This document shows, one piece after another, positions 4,921 through 49,831 of a stretch of DNA of 64,000 nt (its first letter is position 1; each line of letters begins with the position of its first letter). Source of the stretch: Candidatus Limnocylindria bacterium (GTDB lineage: Bacteria; Chloroflexota; Limnocylindria; QHBO01); NCBI GenBank assembly GCA_038253355.1, contig JBBSHF010000001.1, positions 933 to 64,932 of the forward strand, given 5' to 3'. The notes under the pieces were generated by a model, which was not told where the DNA came from, searched no databases, and saw nothing but the letters and a program-made list of their open reading frames with translations. The position numbers were made by a program, and so were the translations under genes.

Positions 4921-5985
4921 ATGCGCATCGCGGTCGATGCGATGGGCGGGGACCACGCCCCCCGCGAGGTCGTTCGTGGCGCCCTCAATTACGCGGCATC
5001 GCACGCCGACGAAGTGATCCTGGTCGGCGACCTGCTGCGCATCGAGCGCGAGATCAACGAGTACGGCCACGGCCGACCGGCGAGCGTGCGCTTCGTCGAC
5101 GCCCCCGAGGTGATCGGGATGGGGGAGGCGCCCGCGGCTGCGCTGCGTGTCAAGCGGCGCGCCTCGATCCGGGTCGCCACCGACCTGGTGCGCAATGGTG
5201 AGGCCGATGCGGTGGTCAGCGCCGGCTCGACCGGTGCCCAGATGGCGGCGGCGATCCTGCGGCTTGGCCGCATCGAGGGGATCGACCGACCGGCGCTGCC
5301 GGCGCACATGGTCACCGCCACCGGTCCGATCATGCTGCTCGATGTGGGCGCCAACGTCGATTCGGACGCCGCCAACCTCGTCCAGTTCGCGGCGATGGGC
5401 GCCATCTTCGCTGAGCGCGTGCTCAGAGTGACGCGGCCACGGGTCGCACTCCTCAACATCGGCGAGGAGCCGGAGAAGGGCGATGTGCTCACCCGCGAGG
5501 CGAACGTGCTGCTGCGCGCCAGCGACCTCAATTTCGTGGGCAACGTCGAGGCGCACGAGATGATCGGTCACGTGGCCGATGTGGTCGTCTGTGACGGCTT
5601 CGTGGGCAACGTCGTGATCAAGCTCTTCGAGGGCCTCACCGGCTACATCTTTCGCGCGCTGCGCAGCGACCTGCAGCAGGGCCCCATGGCGCCGCTGGCG
5701 CTGCTGGCCCTGAAGCCCGGCTTCGAGCGCATCAAGCAGCGCTTCGACTACGAGCAGTACGGTGGCTCGCCACTGCTCGGTGTGCGTGGGGTCAGCATCG
5801 TGACCCACGGACGGGCCAAGGCCTGCATGGTCGAGCATGCCATCCGGGTCGCCTCCGAGGCTGCCGCCGCTCACATTCCGCAGGTCATCGCCGACTGGAG
5901 TCGCAGCCATCCGTTGCCGTCGTCGTCCGACGATCGTCGGACGGCCAGCCAGGCGGTCGCGGCCGGCCCGGAAGTCGGGGACTGA
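4921..5985 (+). CDS. plsX: Phosphate acyltransferase PlsX
   Basis: MRIAVDAMGGDHAP N-terminus and a GNVxxK motif. Start was chosen at the conserved M; the ORF is open further upstream. Confidence 0.9.
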   Translation: MRIAVDAMGGDHAPREVVRGALNYAASHADEVILVGDLLRIEREINEYGHGRPASVRFVDAPEVIGMGEAPAAALRVKRRASIRVATDLVRNGEADAVVSAGSTGAQMAAAILRLGRIEGIDRPALPAHMVTATGPIMLLDVGANVDSDAANLVQFAAMGAIFAERVLRVTRPRVALLNIGEEPEKGDVLTREANVLLRASDLNFVGNVEAHEMIGHVADVVVCDGFVGNVVIKLFEGLTGYIFRALRSDLQQGPMAPLALLALKPGFERIKQRFDYEQYGGSPLLGVRGVSIVTHGRAKACMVEHAIRVASEAAAAHIPQVIADWSRSHPLPSSSDDRRTASQAVAAGPEVGD

Positions 5986-5990
5986 ATCGG

Positions 5991-6431
5991 ATGGCCGCCG
6001 CCCATCGGCCAGTCGAGGACGGTTCGGGGCTGCAGGCACGACGGCTGGCGCTGCTGGCACTCTTCGAGGCCGAGTTCCGTCCGACCCAGGCGAGCGCCGC
6101 GATGGAGCGCCTGGCCGCGGACCGCGATCTCGAGGCCGACATCGTCGAGCATGCTCGACGGATCGTGCAGGGGGTTGCCGAACATCGGCCTGAGCTGGAC
6201 CAGCGGATCGCCGAAGTGGCGCCCGCCATCCCGGTCGCGGAGCTTGGCAAAGTCGAGCGTACGATCCTGCGGAGCGCGCTGTTCGAGGTGCTATACTCCG
6301 CCGCGACCCCGAGCGGGGAGGCGATCAGCGATGCCGTGTCCCTCGCCCGGATCTATGCCGGAGATGCGGCCCGCCGCCTCGTGAACGGCGTCTTGGGGAG
6401 CATTGCTAGATCATCGGGTGGAGGTGTCTGA
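5991..6431 (+). CDS. nusB: NusB-family transcription antitermination protein
   Basis: [28 protein letters not shown] and [12 protein letters not shown] match the NusB helical motifs. Confidence 0.7.
6289..6297 (+). promoter_or_regulatory. Candidate extended -10 promoter (TGcTATACT followed by CCGCCGCG) inside the 3' end of the nusB-like gene, 137 nt upstream of acpP
   Basis: Exact TGcTATACTCCGC motif shared with the rplS and rpsB upstream regions. Confidence 0.35.
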
Positions 6432-7414: not shown

Positions 7415-10400
7415 GCCGGCTGCGCGAGCTGCGGCTGCACGGCTTCAAGACCTTCGCCGATCCGACGCGCTTCGTCTTCGAACCGGGCGTCAACGCCGTC
7501 ATCGGTCCCAATGGCAGCGGCAAGAGCAACATGGCCGATGCGGTGCGCTGGGTGCTCGGCGAGCAATCGAATCGCTCGCTGCGCACGCGTCGTGCCGACG
7601 ATGTGATCTTTGCCGGCTCGCAGCATCGCCAGCCGCAGGGGATGGCCGAGGCCGTCCTCACCCTGGACAACGCCGATGGCTGGCTGCCGATCGACTTCGG
7701 TGAGGTCAGCATCGGACGGCGCGCATATCGCTCCGGGGAGAGCGAGTACCTGATCAACGGGGCACGCGCCCGCCTGCGGGACGTGGTTGAGCTGCTGGGC
7801 GAGGGACGCCTGGGCGCCAACGAGCTGGTGGTGGTTGGCCAGGGAACGGTCGATGCCGCCCTGTCGCTGCGCCCCGAGGAGCGTCGCCAGCTCTTCGAGG
7901 AGGCGGCCGGCGTCAAGGGTCTGCAGGTGCGCAAGAACGAGGCGATGGCCCGCCTCGCCAAGGCACGCGATAACCTGACGCGGATCACCGACCTGATCGG
8001 CGAGCTCAGGCCGCAGGTCCGCCGGCTCAGCGCACAGGCGCAGCACCAGCAGGAACACGACGGGCTGCTGCTCCACGCGCGGGCCCTCGTCGGGGAGTCG
8101 CACCGGCGTCGCGAGCGTGCTGCGCGGGCCGGACTCGGTGAGGTGCGCCGGCGGGCTGCTGCCGCCGAGGCTGCACTCGAGTCGCTGCGAGCGGAGCAGC
8201 AGGCCGGCCAGGCCGAGCAGCAGGCTGCCGAGGAGCGCTACTGGCAGGCAGAGGCCGCGGCGCGCGCCGCGGCTGAGCAGCGCGAATCGACGCGCGAGGC
8301 GCTGATCCGGGCCGAGAGTCGATCCGACGCGATGGCGGCGCGCCGCGAGGAGCTGCGCGCCGCCATCGAGCTCGGCGACCGTGAGCTGGCCGCGGCCCGC
8401 CGGGCGCGGGCGGGGCTGGTCGAGATGGCGCCTGAGGCCGAGATCGCTGCTGTCCTGGCGCGATCCACGGCGGCAGAAGGTGACTGGCAGGGGACGATCG
8501 CGATGCTGGCCGCCGCCGACGCTGAGCTGCTTGCCGCCGAGGACGCACTGGCCGAGGCGCGTCTTCGCGACGCGGAGCGGCTGGCCGCCGACGCACGACG
8601 CCGCGAGACGCTCTCCGCCACGCTCGCCCGACGAGAGCGACTCGAACGAGATCTGGCCGCGCAGGGTGAGATGTTGGCGCGGAGCCAGGCTGCGGTCGAG
8701 GCGGCGCGAACAGCGCTCTCCGCGGCGGACGCGCAGGAGGACGCAGCGCACCGGCGCATGCTCGCGGTCCAGGCCGCGTTGGCCACCGCGCAGCAAGCCG
8801 CTGATGCGACCCGCCTGCGGGCTGCGCAGCTGGCCGGGCAGGCAGAGACGGTCCGAGGCGAGCTCGCCGCGCTGCGCGAGCGGACGGAGGGCGGCAATCG
8901 GCTGGGGGCGCTGCTCGCCGCTGGCGGCTGGTCGACCCTGCTCGACGCCGTCGCCGCTCCCGAGGAAACGTGGCCAGCGATCGAGGCGCTGGTTGGTGGT
9001 GAGCTTGGCGAGGCGCTGCTGTGGCGAGACCAGGAGCTCAGCGGTGACCTTGACGTCGGCCGCGGCGTCGCGCGCCTGCTGGCCGGAGGTCCCGCAGCAG
9101 CCGGTCGCAGCGCGGCGGCCGAGCGCGAGGCCGCGTTGCGCGCGGTCGGTGCGACCCGGACAGTGGCCGAGTGGGCAGGGGCGGCCGACGTGCCGGCCAT
9201 CTTTCATCGGGCCGTGGTGGCCGCCGATCTCGCCGCGCTGCTGCGGGGCTGGCGCGACCTGCCCGCGGGCTGGTCGGCGGTGACGGTCCAGGGCGACCTG
9301 GCTGATGCTCGCGGCGTGCTGACCCTGCGCGGCCGGGCCGAGCCTGCTGGCGGCAGTGCTGCGCGGGCCCACGCCCGACGACGCGAACTGGCGGAGCGGA
9401 TGGAGGCGCTCAGCGCCGAGGAGCTGCAGGCCGCCGCCACCACCGAGGGCGCTGCCTCAGAGCTCGAGCGGCTGCGTCGCGAGCTCGCCGAGGTGCGGCA
9501 CGCGCACGAGGAGGCAGAACGCGTGACGCGCCGCGCACGCGCCGAAGCCGATCTGGTGCAGGCAAACCGGGAACGCGGCGAGCGTGAGGCGGCGGAGCTC
9601 GACACCCAGCTGCGGCGCGCCCGGGCTGCCGAGGCGACAGCGGGGAGCACTCCGGACGCCAGGACGCCGGGCGATGGGCAGCTCGACCGCCTCACGCTCG
9701 CTGTCGTCGAGGCGCGCCGCCGTCGAGACACCGTGGCCGCCGAGCGCGACAGCGCGCGCGCCGGGTGGCAGGAGGCGCGCGCGGCAGCCGAGGCGGTCGA
9801 GACGAGCAGCGTCGGGCAGCGACGCGAGCGCGGTCTTCTCGAGGCGCGGGTGGTGCAGCATGAAGCGGCGCTTCCCACGCAGCGCGCGGTGCTGGCCACG
9901 ATCGAGCAGGAGTCGACGACGGCCGGCGACCTGCTTGCGGCGGCGCACACACGCGACGGCCTGGCTGCCCGAGCGCGTGCCGCGGCCGATGCCGAGCGTG
10001 AGCGGCTGCGCGCGGAGCTGCTTGCCAAGGAGCGCGGCAGCGGAGCCGCCGCTGCACGCTTCGGCGAGCTGGAGCGTGACGCGCAGGCATCGGCGATCGA
10101 GGCCTCGCGACAGGAGGACGCGCTCAGCGCGCTGGAGCGCGAGCGCGAGCTCGCCCTGGAGAGCCTTCCAGAGGCGGATGAGCCGTCAACGGTCGGCCAG
10201 TCGCCCGAATCTGAAGACCCACAGCTTTTCGGGATGGACGAGGCGAGCCTCGATACGGAGCTGCGCCGTGTGCGTCGCACGCTCGGCCAGATCGGATCGG
10301 TCAACCCGTTTGCCGTCGAGGAACATCGCGAGCTCGCCGCGCGGCTCGACGACGTGTCGACGCAGGATGGCGACCTGCGCGGCGCCATCGGCTCCACTGA

Positions 10401-33637: not shown

Positions 33638-33841
33638 TCAACCCCGCCTGCTCACGACCCAAGCGCCGTCCAGGCCCTGGGTTTCGCCATTTCGGCATCG
33701 AACCGCCGAACCGAGCGCAGCTCCCGCGCAATTACCCGAGGAGCAGCGTCCGTCAGACCGCCGCCCGCCCCCTTGCCGAGCAAGGAAGGTGCACGGGCCG
33801 TGCGCCGGACGTGAACCACCATCAGATCATTGGAGGAATCA

Positions 33842-36454
33842 GTGGCAATCAACGTTGAGGCCGAGATCGGCAACCAGAGCTTCTCACTCGAGGCTGGCAG
33901 GCTTGCCGAACAGGCCGATGGAGCGGTGCTGGTGCGCTACGGCGACACCATGGTGCTGGCAACTGCCGTGGCGAGCAAAGAGCCGCGTGAGGGGACGGAC
34001 TTCTTCCCGCTCACGATCGATTACGAGGAGCGGATGTACGCCGCGGGCAAGATCCCGGGCGGCTTCATCAAGCGCGAGTCGCGCCCATCGGAGGCGGCCA
34101 TCCTGGCCATGCGCCTCACCGACCGGCCGATCCGGCCCCTCTTCCCGAAGGGCTACCGCAACGACGTGCAGGTCGTCCTGACCGTCCTCTCCGCCGACCA
34201 GGAGAACGATCCGGACATCCTCGCGCTCAATGGCGCGTCGGCGGCGCTCTCGATCAGCAACATCCCGTTCATGGGACCCGTCGGCGCCGTGCGCGTCGGC
34301 TACATCGATGGCCGGTTCGTGACCAACCCGACGACCAGCCAGTTGGCCGAGAGCCAGCTCGACCTCGTGGTGGCGGGTACCCGCGACGCGGTGATGATGG
34401 TCGAGGCCGGCGCCAAGATCCTGCCCGAGGCGGTCATGGCCGACGCCATCGACTACGGGCAGCGCGAGCTGCAGAAGAGCATCGACCTGCAGGAAAAGCT
34501 GGTCGCCACGGCCGGGACGCCCAAGAAGCTGCCGTTCATCGGTCCGAAGGCGGACTCGGTGGCCAAGCTGGGCAAGGCCCTGGGCAGCGGCGCGGCAGAC
34601 TTCGTGGTCTTCGACCTGGAGACAACCGCCATGAAGCCGGGGAACGGCTACATCGTCGACATCGCCGCACTGCGCGTGCGTGACGGCCAGGTGGTCGATC
34701 GCTTCGAGTCGCTCGTGAATCCGGGCAGCTCGATCGTCGGGCACCAGGTGCACGGCATCTCGGACGAGGACGTCTCGAACGCGCCGACGGCCGCCGAGAT
34801 CCTGCCGAAATTCGCCGAGTGGGTTGGCGACGCGGCACTGGTCGCGCACAACGTCAGCTTCGATCTGCCATTCGTGCTGCGTCACCTGCCGACCGACATC
34901 AAGTGGGAGCCCAGCGCGGTCTACGACACGCTGGAGCTGGCGTACCAGCTCTATCCGGAAGCCGGAAGCTACAAGCTCGCCGACCTCGTCCGCTTCGTGT
35001 TCGGGCGCGAGCACCAGGCGGCGCATCGTGCCATGCCAGACGCGCAGGCCACGGCCGACCTGTTCATCGACCTGACCAAGGGCCTGTCCGGGCGCCTGGA
35101 CGCGGTGCGCGGCGATATCGCCGCCGAGATCCGCCGCGGACGCGAGGGTTACAACCGCTCCGAACAGGGGCAGCGCATGGAGGATATCCGGCGCCGCCAC
35201 GGCATCGGCAAGGACCTGATGGACGTGCTGACCAAGGGCACCGTGCGTGAGCTGGTGCTCTCCGAGGGGGTGCGTCTCGACGGTCGCGACACAACCACCA
35301 TCCGCCCCATCAGCGTGGAGGTCGGCATCCTGCCGCGGACCCACGGCTCGGGCCTCTTCACCCGCGGACAGACGCAGGTCCTGTCGATCGCCACGCTCGG
35401 CCCGTCGAGCGACGTGCAGCGCCTCGACACCATCTCGCCCGAGACGGAGAAGCGCTACATCCACCACTACAACATGCCGCCCTACTCGGTCGGCGAGGCC
35501 AAGTTCATGCGCGGCCCCGGCCGTCGCGAGATCGGGCATGGTGCCCTCGCCGAGCGGGCGCTGCTGCCGGTCCTGCCAACCGTCGACGAGTTCCCGTACG
35601 TCATCCGCGTGGTGAGCGAGGCGGTGAGCAGCAACGGCTCGACCTCGATGGCGTCCACCTGCGGCAGCACGCTTGCCCTGATGGACGCCGGCGTGCCCAT
35701 CAAGGCGCCGGTGGGCGGCGTGGCGATGGGCCTCATCAGCGACCAGGCCACTGGCCGCCATGCGGTGCTCACCGACATCAGCGGCAAGGAAGACGCCTAC
35801 GGCGACATGGACTTCAAGGTGACCGGCACGTCCGAGGGCGTCACGGCGCTGCAGATGGACATCAAGACCGCCGGCATCACGCCGGAGATCATGCGCAATG
35901 CGCTCGAGCAGGCTCGCCTGGGTCGGCTTTTCATCCTGGACAAGATGACCGCCACGATCAGCGCCAGCCGCAGTGAGCTGAGCCAGTACGCGCCGCGGAT
36001 CATCACCATCAAGATCCCGATCGACAAGATCCGCGACGTCATCGGCGCGGGTGGCAAGGTGATTCGCCAGATCACCGCTGAGACCGGCACCCAGATCAAC
36101 GTCGAGGACGACGGCACGATCCAGATCGCGTCGACCTCGAGCGAGGCCTCCGACAAGGCAGTGCGCTGGATCGAGGGCCTGACGCGTGACGTCGAGGTTG
36201 GCAAGGAGTACCTCGGCAAGGTGACCCGGATCATGAACTTCGGTGCCTTCGTCGAGATCCTGCCCGGCAAGGAGGGACTGGTGCACATCAGCCAGCTCGC
36301 CGATTACCGGGTGCCGCGCGTCGAGGACGTGGTCAGCATCGGCGACGAGCTGATGGTGGTCGTGACCGAGATCGACCGGATGGGCCGCGTCAACCTGTCG
36401 CGGCGCGCCGCCATGGAGCGTCACATGGCCAAGGCGGGCGCGGGCCAGTCCTAG
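33842..36454 (+). CDS. pnp: Polyribonucleotide nucleotidyltransferase (PNPase), with a DnaQ/RNase T-like DEDDh 3'-5' exonuclease domain inserted in the inter-core helical domain
   Basis: Both RNase PH cores are present ([26 protein letters not shown]...; [10 protein letters not shown]...[35 protein letters not shown]), followed by KH and S1 domains. Start is GTG 33842 after the GGAGGAA RBS. Length is ~870 aa against a typical ~710 aa. Confidence 0.9.
34583..35075 (+). other. In-frame DEDDh (DnaQ-like / RNase T-Orn-like) exonuclease domain embedded in pnp (residues ~252-415 in the frame numbered from TTG 33830)
   Basis: Exo [11 protein letters not shown] (D262, E264), Exo [15 protein letters not shown] (D345), Exo [17 protein letters not shown] (H399, D404). 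Flanked by the PNPase helical-domain sequence on both sides. Confidence 0.8.
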
Positions 36455-46536: not shown

Positions 46537-47072
46537 CCGAGCTCAACCTGCGGCGGAGGCGGAGGCGGGGGCGGCGGACACGTCGAAATGACCGACCTGG
46601 GCCACGGGTCATCGTCGAGATTGAGGGCCTCATCGTCGGCTATAGCGACCCCACCGAGAGGTGACCGAGGATCGGCCGATTCTCCTCTGCCTCCTGGAGG
46701 GCACCGGCGCAGATTGATCGTGTCCGGATCAAGCTTCGCGGCCTTATGGCTACTGAAGTCAACTCTTCATGGAATCCCGACGGCCTAGTTCCTCATGTTC
46801 CTTGACATGTAAACGCTTTCGGTCCACGATGAAACCGACGGCAACGGTCGCATAGAAGGTTGCTATTCCGCACGAGGTCTGTCGGCTGCGCGCCTCGACG
46901 AGGATTTCGTCCGACCCGACGGTGGACAACTCAACCGATGGTCGGGGCGGATGTGGATGTCTAGCCTCCCTTCTCAGCGGGCGGCAAAGCTCCTCTCGGG
47001 AGAGGAGGCGGTGCGATACGATACGAGATGACACTCCTGAGCGCGCTCCATATGAAGCAGGGAGAGACTCTC

Positions 47073-47498
47073 ATGCGCGTTATGCGGATACTGTTCGGCC
47101 TGTCGCTACTTGCAGCGATGCTCACCGCCTCGCCGGTTGCGGCAGACGGGAGATGCAATGGACAGCGAGGCATCCAGGTTTGGGCCGACTCGGGGTTCTC
47201 GGGAAGCAGCACTGTCTGGTGCCAAAATAATACTGGCGGCATCGCCATACCCGACCTGTCGACTCACCACGAGGGAGGCCAGTGGTGGCCTCAGAGCTGG
47301 AACGACGCGATCAGCTCGTTCCAGACGTTCAACATGTCCAGCACATTGCCCACATGCTTCTATCAAAACAGCAACTATGGCTCGACCTACTGGCGCTATA
47401 ACGGCAACCAGTCGATCCAGTACGTCGGCCTCGATAGGAACGACCAGTTCTCTTCGCTCCTGGTCGCCTGGCCGAAGTACAACTACTGCGGATCGTAG
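47073..47498 (+). CDS. Secreted single-domain beta-gamma crystallin-fold protein (killer-toxin / SMPI-inhibitor-like), in a lower-GC islet
   Basis: Signal peptide MRVMRILFGLSLLAAMLTASPVAADG. Two Greek-key motifs (VWADSGFSGSS...SWNDAISSF and FYQNSNYGS...RNDQFSSLL). Four Cys residues. AGGGAGAG RBS. Confidence 0.6.
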   Translation: MRVMRILFGLSLLAAMLTASPVAADGRCNGQRGIQVWADSGFSGSSTVWCQNNTGGIAIPDLSTHHEGGQWWPQSWNDAISSFQTFNMSSTLPTCFYQNSNYGSTYWRYNGNQSIQYVGLDRNDQFSSLLVAWPKYNYCGS

Positions 47499-47513
47499 AG
47501 GGAACGAACGTTC

Positions 47514-48404
47514 GTGCGCACTCTGGCGGACGCCGCGTCGGTCGACGACTCGGCGCCCGCCCTTGAAGCCCACAGTCTATCGAAGCGCTACAGACGCGGC
47601 GTCTGGGCGCTGCGAGCGATCGATGTGTCGTTTCCCCCAGGCGCAATCATCGGTCTCGTAGGTCCCAACGCGGCCGGCAAATCCACGCTCATCAAGACCT
47701 GGGTGGGCTTCGAACGGCCGACGAGCGGGTTCGTCAGGGTCGATGGCTTCGATCCGTTTCGGCAACGGCACGAGGTCATCCAGCGGCTGGCCTACATTTC
47801 CCAGCGCACACCGCTCTACCGCCAGCTGACCGTGGGCGAACACGTCGAGTTCGCCCGAATCCTTCGGCCCGGCTTCGACGCTCGTCTTGCATTCTCGCGC
47901 CTTGATGCCCTGGACATTCCTCGCCGCGCCTCGGTGGCGGAGGTGTCCGGCGGTCAAGCTGCCCAGCTAGCGCTGACCATCGCTCTCGCCACACGGGCGC
48001 ACACGATCTTGCTGGATGAGCCCCTGGCGAGTCTCGATCCGCTCGCGCGCCGGGAATTCCTGAGTGCTCTCCGCATGGCCGTCCGGACCGAAGGACTCAC
48101 CGCGCTACTGTCAAGCCACATCGTGACCGACGTGGAGCAGGTCGCCGATCGCATCGTCGTCCTTGGCGTGGGACGCAAACTCCTCGATGAGTCCGTCGAC
48201 GCCATCGTCCGCAACCACGCAGTAGCCCGAAATGGGACGGCATTGCCGCCCGGCGCATCCGAGGTCGCGGCCATCACCGACTCGAGCGGACAGCCGATAC
48301 GCGTTCTCCGCACCAACGGCAGCATCGATGGGCTTGAGACACCGGGGGTTGAGGATGTGGTGATGGCCTATCTGGCCGCAGGGCGCACCGATCGGCCCAC
48401 ATGA
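47514..48404 (+). CDS. ABC transporter ATP-binding protein
   Basis: Walker A GPNAAGKST, ABC signature LSGGQAAQ, Walker B ILLDEP. Confidence 0.8.
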   Translation: MRTLADAASVDDSAPALEAHSLSKRYRRGVWALRAIDVSFPPGAIIGLVGPNAAGKSTLIKTWVGFERPTSGFVRVDGFDPFRQRHEVIQRLAYISQRTPLYRQLTVGEHVEFARILRPGFDARLAFSRLDALDIPRRASVAEVSGGQAAQLALTIALATRAHTILLDEPLASLDPLARREFLSALRMAVRTEGLTALLSSHIVTDVEQVADRIVVLGVGRKLLDESVDAIVRNHAVARNGTALPPGASEVAAITDSSGQPIRVLRTNGSIDGLETPGVEDVVMAYLAAGRTDRPT

Positions 48405-49375
48405 TGGCGCGCTCGTTGGCAGCACTTCGAATCTCAGCGAAGCTCGATCGCTTTGAGCTGCTTACCGTGTTGGTGGTAACGGTGGTTGGGCTCGCAGCCG
48501 TGCTGCTTGTCGGGTTGCGCCTCCATTCCTTCGCGCCGAGCGCGCACTGCCAGGAGCTCGTCTGGCGCGGCTTCTCTTCGCAGGATCTGCGCGCATGCCC
48601 AGGCCTCCTGGAATTCGTCCAGTTCGACACTTCGTTCACCGGCAACGCCATGGTTGCCATGAGCGTCGCACCGTTCGCCATCGGAACGCTGCTTGGATCG
48701 CCCCTCGTCGCTCGTGAGATCGATACTGGCACCTCGGAACTGGCCTGGTCGCTCACGGTGTCCCGCACCCGCTGGCTCGTGGGTCGCCTGTTGCCGCTGT
48801 TGGCCGCGGTGCTCCTGGCGTCTCTCATCCTTGGCTTCGCGGCCGAATGGTTAGAGCATGCCCGGTTCTCGGTTGTTCCCCCGGCTGAGAGCTTTCGAGA
48901 CTACGGCAGCCGTGGGCCTCTCCTGGCCGCCCGCGCTCTAACGGCATTCAGCATTGGGATCCTCGTCGGAACTGTCCTGGGCCGAACGGTGCCTGCCCTG
49001 GTGCTGACCGCGGCCGCATGTGTTGTCGTCTATTTCTCGCTTTCAACAGCCGCGCTCGCTCTTCAACCTCTCGAGACGGTAACCACCTCGCAGGCACAAC
49101 AAGATATCGGTGCTCTCAACGTCCGCCTGGCTTGGCGAACGCCCGCTGGCCAAGTGTTGAGTGACGAGCAGGCACGGCGGACGATCCCGGCGAACTCCTC
49201 CGATCCGGAAGCCGCCATCCTCTGGCTGAACGAGCACTACCAGGGCGTCTCGATGATCATTCCGGGCACGCAGATGCCGCGTATGGCGTGGACCGAGTCC
49301 GCGCTCCAAGGTTCGGTTGTGCTGGTGGCTTTCGGAGGCGCGCTGATGCTGGTACGTCGCCGACGACCCTTCTAG
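48401..49375 (+). CDS. ABC-2 type transporter permease
   Basis: About six predicted TM helices. Translationally coupled to the ATPase gene (ATGATG overlap). Confidence 0.6.
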   Translation: MMARSLAALRISAKLDRFELLTVLVVTVVGLAAVLLVGLRLHSFAPSAHCQELVWRGFSSQDLRACPGLLEFVQFDTSFTGNAMVAMSVAPFAIGTLLGSPLVAREIDTGTSELAWSLTVSRTRWLVGRLLPLLAAVLLASLILGFAAEWLEHARFSVVPPAESFRDYGSRGPLLAARALTAFSIGILVGTVLGRTVPALVLTAAACVVVYFSLSTAALALQPLETVTTSQAQQDIGALNVRLAWRTPAGQVLSDEQARRTIPANSSDPEAAILWLNEHYQGVSMIIPGTQMPRMAWTESALQGSVVLVAFGGALMLVRRRRPF

Positions 49376-49582
49376 GGGAATGAGGGTCAACTCGAGGAAG
49401 GCGCTCCATCGTCATGTCGCGCCGTGACCTCGGTTCCCTGGAACGTCACATAACTATCATTTGCGGAAGTAGCATCGCGACACGCGGCTGGGTAGCTCGT
49501 GGGTGCTCCAGGACGAATGGCGAGAGTACCGGGAGCTGATCGGGCGATGGCCGGGCCGGCGTCACCGGCGCAACCTGAGCGC

Positions 49583-49831
49583 ATGACGAATTCATCGCGA
49601 GGTGTGCGCTGGTTCGGCGGCCTGGGGCTGGCGTCCGGCGCGCTGCTCAGCGTTGCGGCGCCGCTGGCCGGTACGGAGCTCGCGGACCTGCTGGGCGGCT
49701 ACGGCACGATGCTGGCGCTCAGCGCTGGATACCTGCTCGGCGGGCTGTGGCTGCTCGGCCTGGGTCACTCTCGGCGCGTCGCGCGCGAGCGGTCGGCGAT
49801 CGCGAACGAGGTGATTTCGATTCGGCGCTGA
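49583..49831 (+). CDS. Small two-TM membrane protein (hypothetical), overlapping the convergent 3' end of the methyltransferase ORF
   Basis: GC3-rich coding-like codon usage and two hydrophobic helices. Uncertain. Confidence 0.3.
   Translation: MTNSSRGVRWFGGLGLASGALLSVAAPLAGTELADLLGGYGTMLALSAGYLLGGLWLLGLGHSRRVARERSAIANEVISIRR

Follow-up and report, generated by a model that had tools for sequence, protein, structure and literature searches.

A secreted beta-gamma-crystallin encoded with an ABC-2 exporter in a compact, apparently mobile three-gene module

The window, by which we mean the whole 64,000-nucleotide stretch of contig JBBSHF010000001.1 from a Candidatus Limnocylindria bacterium, is core chromosome, in which the module described here lies between pirin and the SpoU/HflX core genes. 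The gene order on the upstream side is PNPase, UDG, RNase J, FtsK, a RodZ-like gene, DUF520, a Mur ligase and pirin, and on the downstream side SpoU methylase, HflX, a GGDEF-EAL protein, MiaA and RNase Y. The module itself consists of an upstream control region and three genes in close succession, coding for a secreted beta-gamma-crystallin, an ABC transporter ATPase and an ABC-2 permease, with 15 nt separating the crystallin stop from the ATPase start and an overlap of 4 nt between the ATPase and permease genes. The features are as follows (window positions, + for the forward strand).

46948..49375 (+), shared, apparently mobile module of ~2.4 kb, comprising the upstream control region and three genes, delimited by homology with L001 and L024
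47060..47066 (+), ribosome-binding site GGGAGAG, 6 nt 5' of the ATG, read from the sequence
47073..47498 (+), beta-gamma-crystallin precursor gene, 141 aa, stop included, from the ORF, its sequence and the L001 comparison
47073..47144 (+), Sec-type signal peptide, residues 1-24, predicted cleavage VAA/DG, from direct reading and the hydrophobic segment
47145..47495 (+), mature beta-gamma-crystallin domain, 117 aa, 13.2 kDa, pI 5.4
47154..47156 and 47220-47222 (+), Cys28 and Cys50, predicted disulfide, both nearly invariant in the family
47181..47204 (+), Greek-key 1 hairpin W37-ADSG-F42-S-G44, matching [FYW]x4[FYW]xG
47223..47297 (+), family-specific insertion of ~25 residues, Q51-S75, in Greek key 1, from the subfamily alignment
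47301..47318 (+), calcium-site motif 1, N77-D-A-I-S-S82, fitting N/D-N/D-X-X-S/T-S
47355..47357 and 47487-47489 (+), Cys95 and Cys139, predicted disulfide, from co-occurrence in the family
47361..47381 (+), Greek-key 2 hairpin Y97-QNSN-Y102-G103, glycine one position early
47439..47456 (+), calcium-site motif 2, N123-D-Q-F-S-S128, by motif match
47514..48404 (+), ABC transporter ATPase, 296 aa, ABC_tran E 1.6e-22
48401..49375 (+), ABC-2 permease, 324 aa, PF26999 ABC-2_memb_rel subfamily

The crystallin gene opens with the ATG at 47073 and closes with a TAG stop at 47496-47498. Its closest homologue, at 94% identity, was found on a second contig (L001), where a GGAGG is kept at the position matching the ribosome-binding site; since both conservation with L001 and the ribosome-binding site point to 47073, we place the start there. 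A longer reading frame beginning at 47028 was rejected, being broken by indels in the L001 homologue. The two genes differ at 20 synonymous and 10 non-synonymous sites (dN/dS 0.125), which indicates purifying selection and therefore a functional gene, not a spurious ORF, and rules out diversifying selection. The sequence-only reading from which this work started had described the codon usage as clearly foreign, with a GC content of ~56%. The measured GC content is 58.2%, not ~56%, against 69.1% for the whole window, and a large part of the deficit falls at first codon positions (46.5% GC), reflecting an amino acid composition rich in S, N, Q, T, Y and W. At third codon positions the GC content is 78% for the crystallin, 75% for the ATPase and 73% for the permease, compared to about 80-87% in the flanking genes; other parts of the window reach 92%. 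A foreign origin of the module is partly supported, more by the three genomic contexts described below than by codon usage.

The N-terminus of the precursor, read directly, has the make-up of a Sec-type signal peptide, with R2/R5, a hydrophobic core of 14 residues and then SPVAA/DG; it contains neither a twin-arginine motif nor a lipobox, and for want of the latter a lipoprotein identity was ruled out. The N-termini in the family alignment are variable and hydrophobic, with a conserved A-D-x-R-C behind them. The defining signatures of beta-gamma crystallins and of their calcium sites are the hairpin [FYW]x4[FYW]xG and the motif N/D-N/D-X-X-S/T-S, respectively (PMC3551895). Two hairpin signatures had been claimed for this protein. 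The first, WADSGFSG, is exact; the second, YQNSNYG, has its glycine one position early, and the strict signature is satisfied there only by the family consensus (YxxxxYxG), not by the window protein. In profile searches clostrillin and spherulin align with this second hairpin region. The two N-D-x-x-S-S elements are present as described, NDAISS at residues 77-82 and NDQFSS at 123-128, one per Greek key. The pattern [ND][ND]xx[ST]S occurs only five times in the six frames of the 64-kb window, and two of these five occurrences fall in the crystallin ORF, 46 residues apart. Across the subfamily alignment W76, I80, S81 and S82 around the first motif are invariant or nearly so, as nearly are D124, S127 and S128 in the second.

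The protein also contains the four cysteines counted earlier (C28, C50, C95 and C139), and these probably form two disulfides, C28-C50 and C95-C139. For the second pair, Cys95 and the C-terminal Cys are both present in 19 family members and both missing in 12, with the C-terminal residue alone in four and Cys95 alone in none (Fisher p = 2e-6, uncorrected for phylogeny). One bond would tether the N-terminal extension of the crystallin and the other its C-terminal tail.

As a lone sequence the crystallin gives only sub-threshold crystallin matches. The Pfam match to Crystall_3 has an E-value of 0.03 and 14.8-15.6 bits against a cut-off of 27.3, the best PDB sequence is clostrillin with a sub-threshold E of 0.02, there is no NCBIfam match, and a PADLOC search gave nothing above threshold. 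A word-indexed search of 5.8 billion proteins recovered a single relative, with 94% identity, and 43 clusters, the best at 51% identity, came from an exhaustive HMMER search of 1.84 billion cluster representatives. Nearly all of these clusters contain proteins of 130-160 aa with a signal peptide and one domain, and for the most part without Pfam matches. Their consensus reads A-D-x-R-C-x-G-x-x-G-I-Q-V-W ... C ... W-N-D-R-I-S-S-x-Q-T-F-N, continued in the C-terminal part by C-x-Y-x4-Y-x-G ... N-D-x-x-S-S ... C. When the subfamily profile was compared with solved structures, clostrillin (6e-9), spherulin 3a (3e-7) and Protein S (1e-5) were retrieved, followed by M-crystallin and beta-B2. An AlphaFold2 model built on the family alignment reached a pLDDT of 88.9 and a pTM of 0.82, and Foldseek agrees with the crystallin fold of the modelled protein. 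Canonical crystallins, with 83-100 aa, align with the model over just 80-87 residues; the insertion Q51-S75 is modelled as an extra strand and a short helix (pLDDT 81-92). Together, the significant family profile and the predicted structure establish the double Greek-key fold. The proposal of a secreted protein with a signal peptide and a single beta-gamma-crystallin domain was thus borne out by the Sec-type N-terminus, the profile and the model, and the family assignment, for which a check by HMM and structure had been suggested, draws its significance from the subfamily profile and the modelled double Greek key, the lone sequence being sub-threshold.

Further members of the family were sought in other collections. 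A profile scan of genomes, made with a 13-sequence crystallin alignment, found eight distant loci (L002-L009) in metagenome-assembled genomes of Chloroflexota, Actinomycetota, Acidobacteriota and Alphaproteobacteria, all of them in genomes other than that of the window. In a plasmid collection tblastn gave no match to the crystallin or the permease, and a scan of viral contigs found nothing. The fold and the calcium motifs are well known; the subfamily is unannotated.

The protein had been likened specifically to the Streptomyces killer-toxin-like protein SKLP, the yeast toxin WmKT and the protease inhibitor SMPI. This part of the sequence-only reading is not supported; the nearest structural neighbours are calcium-binding crystallins with structural or stress roles. 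Neither WmKT nor SKLP came out as closest in structure; WmKT (1wkt), SKLP (1f53), AFP1 (1gh5) and MiAMP1 (1c01) are all far more distant than the canonical crystallins, and the crystallin profile gave no sequence-level signal for killer-toxin-like proteins at E<=10. To our knowledge, proteins of the WmKT/SKLP/AFP1/MiAMP1 type are without calcium motifs, whereas the window crystallin has both, and WmKT is basic while the window protein has a pI of 5.4. As to SMPI, its family (Inhibitor_I36, PF03995) shares a Pfam clan with the crystallins and many relatives show weak PF03995 matches, but the window protein has none at E<=1 in Pfam, and SMPI was never retrieved by the crystallin profile, structure or Foldseek searches, giving no sign of closer kinship to it. 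The weak matches, found in 21 of 37 relatives (best 6.5e-7), are uninformative because the I36 model also captures ordinary crystallins; a protein named 'peptidase inhibitor family I36' by NCBI matches Protein S and clostrillin, not SMPI. This widely propagated label is not to be taken as evidence of inhibitor function, and the literature searched yielded no paper on I36 biology.

The resemblance to clostrillin, flavollin, spherulin 3a, the N-domain of Protein S and the Ciona crystallin is itself distant, with only 15-26% identity. Compared to these calcium crystallins the window protein adds a signal peptide, two probable disulfides, the 25-residue insertion and the tethered extensions, and its gene shares an operon with those of an ABC-2 exporter, a context that we do not know for any characterised calcium crystallin. 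It fits best among the calcium-binding microbial crystallins, as a secreted member with predicted calcium sites and probable disulfide reinforcement, rather than as a homologue of SKLP, WmKT or SMPI. We are highly confident that it is a Sec-exported, single-domain beta-gamma crystallin of ~13 kDa with both calcium-site motifs, encoded by the first gene of a compact ABC-2 three-gene operon within an apparently mobile module, and, jointly with this, that it belongs to a small, uncharacterised subfamily marked by the tethered A-D-x-R-C N-extension, the 25-residue Greek-key-1 insertion and the tethered C-tail.

The permease has the ABCG/NosY/PmtD-type fold with six TM segments and is served by a separate ABC ATPase, as in type-V ABC-2 exporters. 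Exporters with this fold handle amphipathic or membrane-embedded substrates, and one of them, PmtD, exports PSM peptides; lipid or drug exporters are also among the relatives of the permease. The NCBIfam models nearest to the ATPase are of the DrrA, PmtA and lantibiotic-protection types, and it scores below the cut-off of each. The PF26999 permease has ~118 homologues, some of which carry the JGI label 'multi-copper enzyme maturation permease subunit', and one distant homologue (P0165, on a 17.6-kb contig of JGI 3300043331) adjoins a HisKA_3/GerE two-component system, directly after an unannotated ORF of 150 aa. A metagenome scan with the permease added one locus with too little upstream sequence to be informative. 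The adjacent transporter had earlier been thought to fit either export of the crystallin or self-protection. The association is real, its synteny being conserved, but the export role is not likely to hold: the Sec signal of the crystallin and the ABCG/NosY/PmtD-type fold of the permease led us to reject the pump as the crystallin's exporter. Self-protection by the ABC pair is plausible.

Two further features of the permease are a pair of cysteines in loop 1 (residues 50 and 66), invariant or nearly so in 35 homologues, and a structured alpha/beta insert of ~60 residues between TM5 and TM6 (residues 225-287), which together suggest a conserved extracytoplasmic surface. At the junction of the first two genes, a palindrome with the core CGAACGTTCG (47497-47522) spans the crystallin stop and the ATPase start; it is partly conserved in L001 and not in L024, and could be a hairpin or operator setting the crystallin-to-ABC expression ratio.

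The order crystallin, ATPase and PF26999 permease recurs on the contigs of three other family members (P0002, P0046 and P0047; loci L010/L011, L014/L015 and L016), each time with unrelated flanking genes, although this conserved synteny amounts to two deep lineages only. BLASTP identities to the window versions are 42-48% for the crystallin, 51-52% for the ATPase (L010, L014 and L016) and 38-39% for the permease, from which it follows that the three genes have diverged together. Conservation of gene order across lineages supports the link between crystallin and transporter better than adjacency alone. There was no ABC neighbour beside P0045, P0016, P0035 or the eight distant loci L002-L009. 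We found no crystallin-ABC operon described in the literature searched.

Comparison with close relatives reveals a shared unit that is found in different surroundings. Homology with L001 begins ~125 bp before the start codon, near 46948, and nucleotide homology with another contig, L024, covers 47446-49374 of the window and ends with the permease gene; from these limits the cassette can be drawn at ~46948-49375. In L001, positions 2-244, just upstream of the 94%-identical crystallin module, encode what we take to be the C-terminal 80 aa of an IS256-type transposase, a fragment with no match in Pfam. L024 is a metagenomic contig of 290 kb with an ATPase and a permease 85-86% identical to those of the window and under purifying selection (dN/dS 0.17 and 0.15, respectively). 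They are located in an accessory region together with methyltransferase, acetyltransferase and NUDIX genes, and a phage-type integrase lies 2.4 kb downstream. Upstream of these intact ABC genes, at L024 ~9047-9099 (equivalent to window 47446-47498), only a frameshifted stub of the last ~17 crystallin codons is left: '...FSSLLVAWPQY', a 1-nt frameshift, then 'HCGS' and a stop. The family HMM detected no other crystallin in the 21 kb of L024 around these genes. In this lineage the exporter is maintained without the crystallin, a natural crystallin deletion. With three contexts among close relatives (window, L001 and L024), the module apparently moves between genomes.

Scans around the module for Rfam families, tRNAs, promoters and terminators, and repeats were uninformative, and there are no repeats on its two sides that would betray an insertion. 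The interval from pirin to the point where module homology begins is ~410 bp of non-coding, lower-GC DNA (46537-46947) with no Rfam match, tRNA or convincing ORF, which may be a remnant of the insertion event. Between the permease gene and SpoU, just past the end of the homology with L024, lies an ORF of 110 aa (49499-49831, +) that has hydrophobic segments and no Pfam match.

What the module does can be approached through its arrangement. The reading that we rank first, by analogy and with a probability of roughly 0.35, is that the crystallin is a putative extracellular antagonistic protein with ABC-mediated self-protection. It comes first because a small secreted folded protein with ABC genes next to it, carried on a mobile cassette and represented elsewhere by orphan exporters with a stub of the first gene, is the arrangement of a bacteriocin/immunity locus. 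Once outside the cytoplasm, the crystallin would fold into a highly stable binding module kept together by calcium and disulfides, and would act on the envelopes of other cells in a bacteriocin-like or antifungal-like manner, while the co-transcribed ABC-2 exporter would shield the membrane or envelope target of the producer itself; relatives that have lost the crystallin and retain the exporter would then represent an 'orphan immunity' system. The conserved three-gene order, the mobility of the module and the exporter-only L024 all agree with such a role, as do the exporter fold, the DrrA, PmtA and lantibiotic-protection models nearest to the ATPase, and the permease homologue found by a two-component system and a 150-aa ORF. 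A comparable architecture is found in the lactococcin 972 cluster, where, on a mobile element, putative ABC immunity genes come after the gene for a beta-sandwich bacteriocin secreted through Sec (PMC4055356). The likeness, a small Sec-dependent folded protein and then ABC genes in one operon, is one of architecture only and is used here as an analogy; the two systems differ in fold, in permease family and in gene order, and the window module has no Pfam or NCBIfam match to Lactococcin_972 at E<=1.

Several observations go against antagonism. The nearest structural relatives of the crystallin are calcium-binding structural or stress proteins and not toxins, the mature protein is mildly acidic, and the low dN/dS values (0.125-0.15) do not point to diversifying selection, a frequent mark of antagonistic effectors. 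The synteny is confined to two deep lineages, other members being without an ABC neighbour, and an exporter kept after the crystallin was lost would be expected just as well if the crystallin were a dispensable accessory protein. Moreover, immunity by ABC-2 transporters is best documented for small peptides, not for folded proteins of 13 kDa. The fuller proposal, that these loci represent an undescribed class of Sec-secreted antagonists built on the calcium-crystallin domain, borne on a 2.4-kb mobile cassette with a PF26999 immunity exporter and leaving orphan immunity cassettes behind, is a tentative one that we would rather doubt than accept.

An unlikely alternative makes the crystallin an extracytoplasmic partner of the ABC-2 machine that docks on the outer loops of the permease and serves there as acceptor, sensor or mechanically driven component, much as NosD/NosL work with NosFY, with calcium or other metal sites possibly taking part. 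In its favour, the three proteins co-diverge within one operon, the loop-1 Cys pair and the ~60-residue TM5-TM6 insert offer extracytoplasmic features on the permease side, and the multi-copper enzyme maturation label given to some homologues points the same way. It is harder to reconcile with L024, where the ABC pair is under purifying selection with no crystallin to serve, and with the majority of subfamily members, which have no ABC neighbour. Set beside NosDFY, ABCG2 and PmtCD, the window module lacks NosD, NosL and nitrous-oxide reductase genes, and its PF26999 permease differs from the NosDFY type in having its own extracytoplasmic insert and loop Cys pair.

We consider it similarly improbable that the crystallin is a calcium-binding structural, surface or stress protein like Protein S or spherulin 3a, with the ABC exporter as a co-transferred passenger. 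Proteins of precisely this type match it best in structure and profile searches, the two canonical calcium motifs are kept in the family, and purifying selection is strong. Against it, the order and close spacing of the genes are preserved between lineages with only about 50% identity, and the rare, patchy and mobile distribution is unlike that of a core structural component. Hundreds of microbial beta-gamma crystallin domains are known, very few of them with an assigned biological role beyond calcium-dependent stability.

Less probable again is a metalloprotease inhibitor related to SMPI (MEROPS I36), controlling self or foreign metalloproteases. The weak Inhibitor_I36 matches of 21 of the 37 relatives could be cited in its favour were it not that the model also captures ordinary crystallins and that the window protein itself has no match at E<=1. 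Only one positive hint is left, the sister-clade member P0008, which sits 13 nt upstream of a Peptidase_M10 gene, but this adjacency occurs in one lineage only, and there is no protease gene in or beside the module. Lastly, the idea that the crystallin ORF is a chance frame or an annotation artefact of high-GC DNA, for which one could invoke the many long spurious ORFs of this 69%-GC window and the sub-threshold Pfam score of the lone sequence, is already refuted by the 94%-identity homologue with its dN/dS of 0.125, the 43 homologous clusters, the confident structural model and the significant profile matches.

Whichever function applies, the crystallin-ABC-2 module, which is conserved and mobile and whose genes co-diverge, gives an experimental entry to function in the whole subfamily, with the exporter-only L024 as a natural 'knock-out' relative. 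Were antagonism plus immunity to be true, it would bring a new protein scaffold into bacterial warfare and give a function to the PF26999 exporter family; a partnership with the permease would extend the NosDFY-type idea of ABC-2 machines acting on extracytoplasmic proteins.

Some loci of the wider family have neighbours of other kinds. At P0008 the Peptidase_M10 gene is followed by a gene for a 202-aa unknown protein, and a homologue of the latter (43% identity) precedes P0045. The sister-clade crystallins of L012 (3708-5428) and L017 (337-1445) are 60% identical, and each adjoins an unknown protein of ~205 aa; these two share an N-terminal hydrophobic segment and 43% identity, and in L012 a Peptidase_M10 gene lies in between. 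L019 carries two differing crystallin-fold genes in tandem (249-785 and 1123-1542), of which the upstream one encodes a 178-aa protein with weak I36 and Crystall matches; behind the pair comes a 313-aa protein with a weak match to DUF4179 (anti-sigma-like). In one Chloroflexia MAG, a distant crystallin twice adjoins a secreted protein of ~460 aa without Pfam match, the crystallin coming first in L005 (5770-7669) and the large protein first in L008 (3102-4511 / 5212-6246); the N-termini of the two large proteins are alike.

Elsewhere in the window, 33830-36454 (+) encodes an 874-aa polynucleotide-phosphorylase-like protein with two RNase PH cores and KH and S1 domains. Its architecture is unusual in that the RNase PH cores are separated by an inserted exonuclease domain of the RNase_T/DEDD type (residues 259-412, E 2e-26).
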